From: an uncultured delta proteobacterium | GTDB lineage: Bacteria > Desulfobacterota > Binatia > UBA9968 | DNA length: 64,000 nt | Assembly (NCBI GenBank): GCA_963840855.1 | Contig: CAWJBB010000059.1 | Location: forward strand, 1-64,000 | Reading direction: 5' to 3' | Part shown: positions 53,391 through 55,654 of the stretch, piece by piece | Position numbering within the stretch: the first letter of the stretch is position 1 | How the letters are laid out: each line of letters begins with the position of its first letter | Translations under genes and position numbers: made by a program | The notes under the pieces: model-generated | The model's input: only the letters and a program-made list of their open reading frames with translations | What the model was told of the DNA's origin: nothing | Databases searched by the model: none

Positions 53391-53780
53391 ATGGAGCCCT
53401 GGATTGAAATTGTGACGCACCCGTTGGGTCTCGTCGGGTTTTCGCTTTTCATCGTGTTTTCCCTCCTGGCTCGAATGGGTCCCACCGGTCGTTGGCCGTG
53501 GCTCGCGCCTGCAGCCGTCACCATGGCTTTCATTGCGCTGCTCGGCGGCCTCGGCTTGGCATTCAGGCAAAGCCATCGAACCGCGGTCCAAGAAAAACCT
53601 GATAAGGCGGTCACGGAGAAGTCTGTTGCAAATGGAACCGGCCAGACGCAAGGGCAAGCTCCGCCGGAGCAACCGACGACAATCCAGCAACAGACTTCCG
53701 GATCGCAAAGTCCCGCCGTCTCCAACATCCAAGGAGACGTAAACATCACGATCCAGGGGAATCAGGAACAAAAACGGTGA
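53391..53780 (+). CDS. Two-TM membrane protein with a C-terminal RHIM/amyloid-like motif
   Basis: Two hydrophobic helices, Q/P/T-rich linker and terminal TIQQQTSGSQSPAVSNIQGDVNITIQG. Confidence 0.75.
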   Translation: MEPWIEIVTHPLGLVGFSLFIVFSLLARMGPTGRWPWLAPAAVTMAFIALLGGLGLAFRQSHRTAVQEKPDKAVTEKSVANGTGQTQGQAPPEQPTTIQQQTSGSQSPAVSNIQGDVNITIQGNQEQKR

Positions 53781-55654
53781 TGAGATTCATCGCGTTTTGC
53801 TTTTTGACCCTCGCCGCAGTTGCCGCTCGCGCGGCGACATTCGAGCAAACCACGTCGGGCTGGTGCAGTCCCGCCGTCGCCGCGGTTCAAGGCAAGGTGA
53901 CGATCGTCTGCAACGGAGTGGACCCGAAAGCTCTCCACCGACTCAACGAGCTGCTAGACAAGAAAGACGTGGAACTCGCCAGGAAGGTTGCCGAGGCCGA
54001 AGAATGGGCCCGCCGATACCGGGAGCTCGAGCAGCGCCTCGCCGACGAGACGAACAACGCCGGGCGGCCCGACCTCGCGGAGCTGCTTGCCGACGCCCAG
54101 CGGAGCCTGAAGGACGGCGATCTGGAAAAAGCGGGCGCCCTGCTCGACCGGTTGATCGAATCGAGCGAAGCCGAAGTCGGGCGCGCCGCCACCCATCACT
54201 ACAGCCGCGCTCAGGTCTTCGACCTTCAATTCAAGGCGGCCCAAGCCCTGCCTCATTACGAAAGGGCTCATCGCTATCGCCCCGAGGATTTGAAGTACGC
54301 ATTCGCTTATGCCAACGCGCTGTTCGCTGCCAACCGCTATGCCGAAGCGGAAACCCTCTATATCGATAATGTAAAAAAACTACGGAACCTGAGCCGCGAT
54401 GATCCCCAAAAGTATCTCCCCATGCTCGCCGGAAATCTTGGGAACCTCGCTTATCTTCGCGGCGATATGGGGCGCCAAAACGAGGCGGAGGAAGCGAGCC
54501 TGGAGTCTTTGGAGATCCTCCGGGCCCTCGCCGGCGGCGAGCCTTTGTTTCACCTTCCTCTGCTTGCGAAGGGGCTTACGATCCAGGGCGATCTCTATCA
54601 GAGCGTCTTGAGATGGAAGGACGCCGAGGCGGCCTACCAGGAGGCGCTCGACCTTCGCCGCAAGCTGACGACTGCCGATCGTTCGCGTTATCTGCCCGAA
54701 GTCGCCGATACGCTCAACGCCCTCGGACGTCTTTACCTGACGACCCAGCGCGTCGCCGGCGCGGAAAAAATGTTCGCCGAAGCTTTGGATACGTATCAAG
54801 CGCTCGCACAGGAAAAACCCGCAGTCTACTTACCCGACTTGACCGAGGCTCTTGGGCAGATGGGACTGCTCTATGTGTACACCCGACGATTGGAAGCTGC
54901 GGAAAAGAGCTACCGTGAAGCCTACGAGATTCTCACGAAACTGTCGCGGGAAGATCCGGCAGGGTACGAGAGCTCGATGGCATGGATGCAGCTACAGTTG
55001 GGGATCGTATACACCGAAACCCGTCCTGCCGAAGCTGAGCAGGCAATTGCCGAAAGCGTCAAACGTTACCGCAAACTGGCGGATCACAACCCCGCAAAAT
55101 TCTCTCGGGCGGTGGCCATGGCCCTCGAGTTGGTGGGGAGGTCTTACCATAATTCCCAGCGCTTGACTGAAGCCGAGAGCGCCTACGACGAATCCCTGAA
55201 GATTCGGCGCAAACTGGCGAAGGAAAACCCGCTGGCCAGAATGGAGCTGGCGGGAGTATTGACCCGAGTCGGCGTTCTTTATGCGGCGACCCACCGTCGC
55301 AATGAGGCGGAGCGGGCGTACAATGAAGCGCTGGCAATTCGACGTCAACTCGACCCTTCCCATTCCGGCCTGCTCGAAGGCCTGGCGGATACACTGCACA
55401 ATCTCGGCGTCCTGCTTTACGAGTTGGGCCGTTGGAATGAATCCGAAAAAGCGCTACGGGAAGCGCTCGAAATTCGCCGCAAACTGGCCGAAGTCAATCC
55501 AGCGGCTAATGTTCCCCACCTGGCCGCGACACTCAAGAGTGCCGGAACTCTTTACCGAGAAACGCAGCGGCCGGATGACGCCGACAAGGCGTTTGCGGAG
55601 GCCGAGGAGATTCTACGAAAGACCGCCAAGCCCCTTGCCTCATCCAGGCCTTAA
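53777..55654 (+). CDS. Signal-peptide TPR-repeat protein with an N-terminal motif matching the upstream gene
   Basis: MRFIAFCFLTLAAVAARA signal, shared motif, coiled coil, then many ~47-aa TPRs (A..L..LG.LY....R...AE..Y.EAL...RKLA). Confidence 0.85.
   Translation: MMRFIAFCFLTLAAVAARAATFEQTTSGWCSPAVAAVQGKVTIVCNGVDPKALHRLNELLDKKDVELARKVAEAEEWARRYRELEQRLADETNNAGRPDLAELLADAQRSLKDGDLEKAGALLDRLIESSEAEVGRAATHHYSRAQVFDLQFKAAQALPHYERAHRYRPEDLKYAFAYANALFAANRYAEAETLYIDNVKKLRNLSRDDPQKYLPMLAGNLGNLAYLRGDMGRQNEAEEASLESLEILRALAGGEPLFHLPLLAKGLTIQGDLYQSVLRWKDAEAAYQEALDLRRKLTTADRSRYLPEVADTLNALGRLYLTTQRVAGAEKMFAEALDTYQALAQEKPAVYLPDLTEALGQMGLLYVYTRRLEAAEKSYREAYEILTKLSREDPAGYESSMAWMQLQLGIVYTETRPAEAEQAIAESVKRYRKLADHNPAKFSRAVAMALELVGRSYHNSQRLTEAESAYDESLKIRRKLAKENPLARMELAGVLTRVGVLYAATHRRNEAERAYNEALAIRRQLDPSHSGLLEGLADTLHNLGVLLYELGRWNESEKALREALEIRRKLAEVNPAANVPHLAATLKSAGTLYRETQRPDDADKAFAEAEEILRKTAKPLASSRP

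Follow-up and report, generated by a model that had tools for sequence, protein, structure and literature searches.

A conserved gene pair with one motif in its membrane and secreted partners: a candidate extracytoplasmic analogue of bacterial amyloid-signaling pairs

We analyzed a 64,000-nucleotide stretch of DNA from an uncultured bacterium of the Binatia (contig CAWJBB010000059.1, positions 1 to 64,000; hereafter the window), in which two overlapping genes at 53391-55654 code for a small membrane protein (gene 1) and a predicted secreted tetratricopeptide repeat (TPR) protein (gene 2). The C-terminus of the first protein and the mature N-terminus of the second share a motif of about 27 residues, and the two genes are a conserved module. 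The pair would be an extracytoplasmic analogue, free of nucleoside triphosphatases (NTPases), of the amyloid-signaling pairs known as bacterial amyloid signaling sequence (BASS) and Bab/Agp pairs, and would form a self-contained two-gene module of the cell envelope; we give this reading a probability of roughly 0.55. On the ground that the motif pairing, the Q/N/G/V bias, the effector repeats and the domain links match those of published amyloid-signaling pairs, gene 2 is read as the putative sensor and gene 1 as the putative executioner, here called the effector. The parts of the pair are listed below.

53391-53780 (+): gene 1, 129-aa membrane effector with two transmembrane (TM) helices, a linker and a C-terminal motif
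53409-53471 (+): gene 1 TM helix 1, residues ~7-27, the best-conserved region of the family
53472-53501 (+): gene 1 loop between the TM helices, short and positively charged, putatively cytoplasmic
53502-53564 (+): gene 1 TM helix 2, residues ~38-58, carrying the pattern GG..G
53565-53678 (+): gene 1 linker, residues 59-96, variable, rich in P/Q/A/S/T and without predicted structure
53679-53759 (+): effector-side motif copy, gene 1 residues 97-123
53777-55654 (+): gene 2, 625-aa TPR sensor, predicted to be secreted
53777-53836 (+): gene 2 leader, residues 1-20, hydrophobic and signal-peptide-like
53837-53917 (+): sensor-side motif copy, gene 2 residues 21-47
53864-53866 (+): sensor C30, an invariant Cys that brackets the sensor motif together with C45
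53909-53911 (+): sensor C45, the other invariant Cys of the bracket
53924-54055 (+): gene 2 helical segment after the motif, residues 50-93, with the conserved pattern GVDP..L..LN..L...W...Y..LE
54068-55636 (+): gene 2 helical-repeat array of the kinesin-light-chain type, with nine 46-residue units at its end
53325-53354 (+): promoter-like site (TTGACA, 18 nt, GATAAT; 11 of 12 positions matching), 37 nt ahead of gene 1, a consensus match alone in a region that holds 2 such sites against 1.4 expected from shuffles

In a single BLASTP comparison, residues 97-123 of gene 1 aligned without gaps to residues 21-47 of gene 2 with 14 of 27 positions identical (E 2e-5). The rest of gene 1 had no further similarity to gene 2, the second-best BLASTP segment reaching E 0.25. 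The best ungapped 27-residue window likewise had 14 identities, and 200 shuffles of gene 1 gave 8 most commonly and 10 at maximum (6 shuffles). The effector of the window carries a single motif copy, and scans of the 7.1-Mb genome with a regular expression and a hidden Markov model (HMM) found the motif nowhere else (next HMM match E 0.55). The genes overlap by 4 nt, with the GTG start of gene 2 on the TGA stop of gene 1 (GTGATGA). The 19-residue Kyte-Doolittle mean of gene 1 peaked at 1.96 for residues 7-25 and at 1.94 for residues 40-58. Gene 2 matched TPR_12 (1.3e-34) and TPR_10 (8.6e-28), with no NTPase family among its Pfam matches, and its repeats are of the kinesin-light-chain type, matching the TPRs of kinesin light chain in PDB 7ai4 (9.1e-43). 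An initial annotation, made from the letters of the DNA, had described overlapping genes that share an ungapped 14/27 motif and no other similarity, an effector with two TM helices and a linker, and a sensor with a signal peptide and TPRs and without NTPase; these observations were borne out, by BLASTP and shuffling, by the hydrophobicity profile and by Pfam, respectively, the linker being polar and the N-terminus of the sensor hydrophobic.

Gene 1 reached the cut-off of no Pfam or NCBIfam family, and the shared motif had no Pfam, NCBIfam or PADLOC model. Tandem Repeats Finder detected no DNA-level repeats in gene 2, so the window's copy has no highly conserved internal TPR units. A downstream TTG start for gene 2, with which the leader would be lost, was rejected because the hydrophobic leader was kept in 13 N-terminal homologues and 43 locus-derived sensors.

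Word-based searches returned seven relatives of gene 1, all of which retained TM helix 1 and the C-terminal motif, the latter in two copies in one of them, and thirteen relatives of the gene 2 N-terminus, all with a hydrophobic leader followed by the two-Cys motif and then by a GVDP..L..LNELLDKKD helix. Contig scans yielded 6 loci from genomes and 80 from metagenomes. The loci came mostly from Acidobacteriota and soil metagenomes, and the named records among them were five metagenome-assembled genomes of Acidobacteriota and one of Nitrospinota. A locus was taken as evaluable when the effector was complete and at least 250 nt followed it (n=70). A sensor-type partner adjoined the effector in 64 of these 70 loci: 54 had a downstream open reading frame (ORF) with the motif at a Smith-Waterman score of at least 30, 7 further loci had a sensor-type ORF with a lower score or beside a frameshifted effector, two partners (L057, L073) were recovered by the motif HMM, and in L055 the sensor lay upstream of the effector. 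The six loci without a partner were L015, L016, L052, L056, L085 and L090, of which L015 and L052 belong, with their relatives, to the fused forms. In a set of 45 unique pairs, 28 overlapped by 4 or 1 nt and 13 were spaced by 0-10 nt, so that 41 lay within 10 bp. Recurrence of the pairing in homologous loci had been named beforehand as a check on the initial annotation, and the pairing proved to be both conserved and co-varying.

The identity of the effectors to the window protein ranged from 27 to 84% across the loci, indicating that these are not one recent clone. In 56 effectors, W4, P11, G13, F17, L19 and F23 of TM helix 1 were invariant, G..G was present in TM helix 1 of 53 and GG..[GAS] in TM helix 2 of 50, and in 46 the invariant W was preceded by an acidic residue, which lay at position 2-3 of the hydrophobic helix at the N-terminus. 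The linker had a median length of 27 aa (range 14-52) and was composed of 15.9% P, 14.5% Q and 13.9% A. The genome of the window and five Acidobacteriota genomes contained one pair each. The module was rare: matches were obtained in 3 of 401 genomes sampled from the phylum to which the window belongs and in 3 of 401 sampled from that of L001, with the query genome and weak matches counted in both.

A second class of leader-bearing proteins, with the N-terminus SGDCSPVII...C.G and without TPR or Pfam domain, was observed at L022:886-2031 and L055:6075-7259 (-). The latter lies about 2.3 kb from the normal pair of that locus, which has the reversed order with the sensor first.

The two motif copies co-varied between cognate genes. 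The motif score had a mean of 46.4 for cognate and 34.8 for non-cognate combinations, and the observed sum was reached by 0 of 10,000 permutations. The cognate excess held for 48 unique pairs and also for 11 representatives below 60% identity, 7 of which ranked their cognate sensor first. Subtypes of the motif switched jointly in both genes: G.GSP.V occurred with GWCSP.I, G.GAVN.AG occurred with GPCTVN.AG, and a third type lacked SP in both. Matched indels in the effector and sensor motifs were found in L005, L018 and L064. Asn after SP was present in 24 effectors and in precisely the 24 sensors paired with them, and a tree built from regions outside the motif gave 8 inferred changes for each gene; Ser and Thr at another motif position behaved likewise on this tree. 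When traits, which overlap, were pooled, 24.7 comparisons went in the same direction, 7.5 in the opposite direction and 81.7 showed no difference. By alignment column, the excess identity had a mean z of 1.68 on the diagonal, 0.02 off the diagonal and -0.09 on the anti-diagonal. Such a like-on-like pattern is what parallel in-register packing would predict, and by itself is no proof of it.

The predicted location of both motifs is the periplasm. In the 56 effectors, the mean number of Lys and Arg together was 4.64 for the inter-helix loop, compared with 1.00 for the N-tail and 1.71 for the stretch of 15 residues that follows TM helix 2, and the loop exceeded the segment after TM helix 2 in 52 of 56. 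By the positive-inside rule, this positive loop suggests that both ends of the effector are periplasmic. All sensors examined had a hydrophobic leader of 12-16 residues. C30 and C45 were invariant in 57 sensors and the Cys pair bracketed the motif in 54 of 56 further sensor representatives; effector tails had exactly two Cys in 6 of 56 cases and none in 50 of 56. Two relatives, P0025 and P0043, had a TIR_2 domain (5.4e-24 and 2.2e-26) followed by three hydrophobic helices and then by two motif copies, an order that would place the motif across the membrane from the TIR domain. The charge distribution, the leaders, the Cys pair and this domain order are consistent with the earlier proposal that both motifs share one extracytoplasmic compartment, and the two Cys that the initial annotation had pointed out in the sensor motif are those found invariant in the 57 sensors.

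The motif is also reused in other proteins. A profile of 40 positions, built from both copies, was searched against 1.84 billion proteins and matched 526 representative proteins at E<=1e-3, 60 of them at E<=1e-10. We classified 146 listed matches by architecture, as follows.

56: long proteins with the motif after a leader
53: short proteins or fragments with the motif after a leader
15: carriers of the 2TM domain
22: other

TPR_12 was present in 45 of the 56 long leader-motif proteins, and a few carried domains of extracytoplasmic type, namely PPIC rotamase (2/56) and OmpA (1/56). The 25 most frequent of the 28 Pfam families in 56 further sensors included no NTPase family, and gene 2 itself has TPRs only, in agreement with the NTPase-free receptor that had been proposed for the window. 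Among the proteins classed as other, in addition to the TIR proteins above, the motif was found in three copies on a Peptidase_C14 caspase-domain protein (P0024, 4.7e-8), in two C-terminal copies on a secreted alpha/beta-hydrolase (P0042, Palm_thioest 7.8e-7), in a single chain of hydrolase, motif and TPR (P0073), in P0126, which combines three TM helices with an N-terminal domain of 340 aa, and in one to three copies on several unrelated small TM proteins.

Copy number differed between the two sides. All 52 proteins with an N-terminal motif had one copy, whereas proteins with a C-terminal motif had one (22), two (12) or three (1). The motif was enriched in Q (3.0x), N (2.0x), T (2.0x), V (1.9x) and G (1.8x) and poor in L, K, E and R (L 0.13x, K 0.4x), while Ile was at 1.04x and Pro at 1.24x, with a conserved Pro in the main motif type.

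Several unusual architectures were observed. The fused forms (L015:3501-4241, L024, L052:87-1034 and L056) have an extra domain of about 110-200 aa with no sensor gene after it, and this domain had no Pfam, PADLOC or PDB match. In L064 the partner (2951-4588) is not a TPR protein and consists of a leader and an adenosine-deaminase domain (Pfam 1e-17; PADLOC CARF_ADA 6.4e-17); its predicted periplasmic location is odd for a nucleotide deaminase. P0026 (439 aa) contains the whole N-terminal module of the sensor, motif and helix, twice in tandem. P0023 (438 aa) looks like a truncated sensor running into an effector, possibly by a frameshift or as a fusion in reversed order.

We also examined structure predictions. 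The AlphaFold2 model of the sensor had a mean predicted local distance difference test (pLDDT) score of 91.6, with a helical leader, a low-confidence stretch at residues 18-48 (blocks of 53-60) and, from residue 50, a confident helical solenoid with pLDDT mostly above 90 and helices at 50-63 and 67-93. Within the low-confidence stretch the motif was drawn as two short strands, 30-33 and 42-45, starting at C30 and ending at C45. The model of P0006, an effector homologue with two motif copies, had a mean pLDDT of 62.9 and showed two long helices (the first at 3-29), an unstructured linker and, in both motif copies, an identical set of three short strands at a distance of exactly 60 residues; pLDDT was 67-71 in the motif copies and 49-56 in the linkers. 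A predicted complex of sensor residues 20-130 and effector residues 80-129, made with alignments, scored 0.01 while its controls were unfolded, and is used here neither for nor against binding. A sequence search of the PDB with the motif profile gave nothing significant. Its best match (E 0.44, not significant) was the N-terminus of an antibody light chain, SP..S.SVG..VTI.C, a segment that contributes strands A and B to the V domain; the match fits a strand-turn-strand reading and is a curiosity rather than homology. The N-terminal 170 positions of the sensor had no PDB match, and the structural neighbors of the homologue P0007 in the Atlas were unnamed clusters only.

The signaling reading can be put as a sequence of steps. 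Gene 2 would be a secreted TPR protein whose mature N-terminus presents a strand-turn-strand motif of about 27 residues between two invariant Cys, and gene 1 a small protein of the inner membrane whose two TM helices are rich in glycine, whose termini both face the periplasm and whose flexible linker would present the C-terminal motif. We infer that the two motifs bind each other directly; they would assemble in register, like residue on like, and thereby act as a homotypic adaptor from the TPR protein to the membrane protein. By analogy with HET-S/NWD2, Bell/NLR (NOD-like receptor) and Bab/Agp, the TPR array would bind a periplasmic cue, the sensors would cluster, and their motifs would nucleate stacking of the effector motifs. 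The clustered TM hairpins might then permeabilize the inner membrane, and the glycine patterns of TM helices 1 and 2 and the acidic residue ahead of the invariant W are details in keeping with this. What corresponds to this output in the relatives would be TIR domains clustered on the cytoplasmic side, or a hydrolase or caspase-like protease turned active. The direction of signaling, the pore, the amyloid character and a role in defense are all putative parts of this scheme.

If the scheme is true, it would extend signaling by higher-order assembly to the cell envelope, and would offer a simple route from a periplasmic event to TIR activation in the cytoplasm across the membrane, all in a pair as small as a 129-aa protein and a TPR protein. 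A bolder version would make the pair the first case of prion-like amyloid signaling outside the cytoplasm, with the disulfide-stapled sensor motif as a template rung, ATP-free cross-beta stacking, a pore of TM hairpins, TIR domains switched on across the membrane in the relatives, and the whole serving as an immune or suicide switch of the envelope against phage entry, bacteriocins or predators. We advance this version tentatively and hold it to be open to considerable doubt.

The main rival explanation is a constitutive tether, in which the 2TM anchor would hold a periplasmic TPR scaffold, peptidyl-prolyl isomerase, OmpA-like or deaminase-like protein through an ordinary beta-sheet for upkeep of the envelope, with no signaling, polymerization or cell death. 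We consider it unlikely, and several results that favor it weigh at the same time against signaling. The fused single chains L015/L024 and L052/L056, in which 2TM, linker and motif run into a further domain, fit a simple tether, as do the housekeeping-type periplasmic domains (rotamase, OmpA) on some partners. The sensor motif is probably locked by a disulfide, which may favor an ordinary folded hairpin, and the two strands drawn by AlphaFold2 between the Cys fit such a fold. No recurrent defense gene or other recurrent partner was found among 109 flanking ORFs of 26 loci, where no Pfam family was common to more than 2 ORFs, PADLOC had no model for the gene 1 or gene 2 protein, and viral contigs contained no relative of the pair. 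The P/Q/A-rich linker recalls tethers that span the periplasm, and Atlas neighbors included TonB-family clusters at a TM score of 0.33, which is not significant. Three further points speak against the signaling reading on other grounds: Pro at 1.24x is not depleted, unlike in BASS motifs; many sensor leaders have no K/R n-region; and the independent-pairs sign tests for single traits were not significant, being under-powered with too few pairs. A tether, however, does not account for the same motif at the end of TIR-3TM, caspase-domain and secreted hydrolase proteins, or for motif repeats (2-3) on the membrane or enzyme side only. TM helix 1, with six invariant residues in 56 sequences, is conserved beyond the needs of an anchor, the distribution is rare and patchy in both phylum samples, and the motif is retained in the fused forms, where no tether is needed.

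The presence of the motif on many unrelated secreted or membrane proteins, at an exposed terminus beside low-complexity S/T/Q/P sequence, would also suit a common tag by which one sorting, processing or glycosylation machine recognizes both proteins. We regard this as quite improbable: a shared recognizer does not demand the pair-specific co-variation with its matched indels, no recurrent third gene lies near the pair, and since the window's genome and five others hold a single pair each, a dedicated machine would serve only two substrates. The likeness of the motifs could finally have no functional link behind it, arising by chance in a short and compositionally biased segment or as a by-product of duplication or gene conversion between neighbors, and the window pair does use the same codon at 8 of its 14 identical residues. 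Across 46 pairs, however, shared codons numbered 231 at 652 identical positions, against 248 expected from codon usage. This absence of an excess means that recent gene conversion does not account for the likeness, and we rejected it as the cause. With shuffles reaching at most 10/27, the pairing recurring in 64 of 70 loci and the profile finding 526 representatives, chance and gene conversion are effectively excluded.

The surroundings of the pair in the window were also annotated. The upstream side is core genome, with an rRNA operon, tyrS, RNase Y, 5-FTHF cyclo-ligase, ZapA and a weak ZapB-like match below the cut-off. The initial annotation had placed the pair in an island of toxin-antitoxin, HEPN and nuclease genes, a description that held only in part. 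The toxin was confirmed downstream of the pair as BrnT at 56957-57412 (-) (Pfam 5.4e-26); the nuclease was a weak Mrr_cat-like match at 59618-60283 (-) with 20.1 bits, under the Pfam cut-off of 21; and the ORF at 59039-59503 that had been named HEPN matched no HEPN family and no other Pfam family. BrnT lies together with a small upstream ORF (56728-57412, -), and an HTH_37 fragment is found at 57559-57693 (+). BrnT, this fragment and the Mrr_cat-like match resemble mobile or toxin-antitoxin debris directly downstream of the pair. The complete rRNA operon (5S, 23S, two tRNAs, 16S) is at 41517-47041 (-) and is adjoined by an IS21-type element at 39519-41234 (+), consisting of an ORF with a Mu-transposase C-terminal domain and IstB (1.4e-58). 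A SCO1/SenC copper-chaperone family protein at 62234-62959 (-) (6.9e-21) is unrelated to the pair.

To the best of our knowledge, the known amyloid-signaling systems (HET-S/NWD2, RHIM, Bell/NLR, Bab/Agp) are all cytoplasmic, and most of them rely on an oligomerizing NTPase. In HET-S/NWD2 the effector has two motif repeats separated by a flexible loop and the receptor has one, and HET-S exerts its effect on the membrane by way of a hydrophobic helix at its N-terminus. The present family is similar in having pseudorepeats on effector members (1-3) and a single copy on the receptor (52/52), and in an effector that would likewise act at the membrane. It differs, as compared by description, in that HET-S/NWD2 is eukaryotic and cytoplasmic with an NLR receptor containing NACHT. 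In curli (CsgB/CsgA), amyloid grows by templating beyond the cytoplasm, and a dedicated partner with related repeats nucleates it. Curli is, however, a structural fiber without TM effector or TPR partner, unlike the proposed signaling pair, and the Curlin-repeat family was absent among the Pfam matches of the pair at E<=1. CpoB (YbgF) of the Tol-Pal system is a periplasmic protein with a leader peptide, an N-terminal helical oligomerization segment and a C-terminal TPR. Unlike gene 2, it is not known to share a motif with any partner in the membrane or to have a motif bracketed by Cys, and its TPR is much shorter; NCBIfam matched the pair only with unrelated TPR proteins far below cut-offs, with no CpoB/YbgF model among them. 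We found no extracytoplasmic amyloid-signaling pair in the literature searched, and PMC12261475 makes no mention of signal peptide, periplasm, transmembrane or TPR. Predicted periplasmic sensors have been noted in other conflict systems (PMC10907252).

Bab/Agp of E. coli (BASS11) is an abortive-infection pair whose motif is needed for abortive infection; Agp is a receptor without NTPase of the type TPR-GreA/B-C-PIN, and the BASS11 motif also occurs with TIR, CHAT, NACHT and NB-ARC domains (Ibarlosa et al., bioRxiv 10.1101/2024.11.07.622273). The present pair resembles it in the adjacent genes, in a small membrane-targeting protein with a C-terminal motif (~20-25 aa in Bab), in a TPR protein without NTPase that has the same motif at its N-terminus, and in occurrence of the motif on TIR and caspase-like proteins. 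Bab/Agp is, however, cytoplasmic. Bab is a soluble helical 'Babybell' bundle of about 80 aa, whereas the present effector has two hydrophobic TM helices, and by Pfam the GreA/B-C and PIN domains of Agp are absent from gene 2, which has TPR only. The leader peptide and the invariant Cys pair of the sensor also set it apart from Agp, by description of BASS11 and not by sequence. The absence of NTPase claimed in the initial annotation was thus confirmed for this pair, but it is no novelty, since Agp is already an NTPase-free TPR receptor in the preprint (10.1101/2024.11.07.622273).

Dyrka et al. (bioRxiv 10.1101/2020.01.06.895854) defined BASS motifs by their presence both at the C-terminus of an effector and at the N-terminus of a receptor whose genes are collinear and often overlap, and described them as rich in Q/N/G/V/I, depleted of K/P/L, sometimes repeated in the effector and associated with alpha/beta-hydrolase, TIR and caspase-like domains as well. 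That definition asks for at least five non-redundant adjacent collinear pairs, and here 48 unique pairs were found, with 41 of 45 within 10 bp. In composition, Q, N, G, V, K and L fit and I (1.04x) and P (1.24x) do not. The Bell domain is a soluble helical bundle of about 100 aa, whereas the N-terminal part of the present effector has about 60 aa, two strongly hydrophobic helices and no Pfam match, as judged by description and not by a Bell HMM. Gene 2 has no NB-ARC or NACHT as an NLR receptor would, the present motifs are predicted to be periplasmic rather than cytoplasmic, and the hosts are Acidobacteriota-type soil bacteria rather than the filamentous Actinobacteria and Cyanobacteria of Bell/NLR. 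We therefore place the pair outside the Bell/NLR BASS family as defined (no Bell bundle, no NB-ARC/NACHT, by prediction not cytoplasmic) and outside Bab/Agp, by description and not by BASS1-11 profiles. What it has in common with Bell/NLR pairs is the Q/N/G/V bias, the effector-side pseudorepeats, an acidic residue as the second or third of the hydrophobic helix at the N-terminus (46/56 here), and a motif that is also carried by TIR, caspase-domain and alpha/beta-hydrolase proteins, in line with what has been published on BASS.

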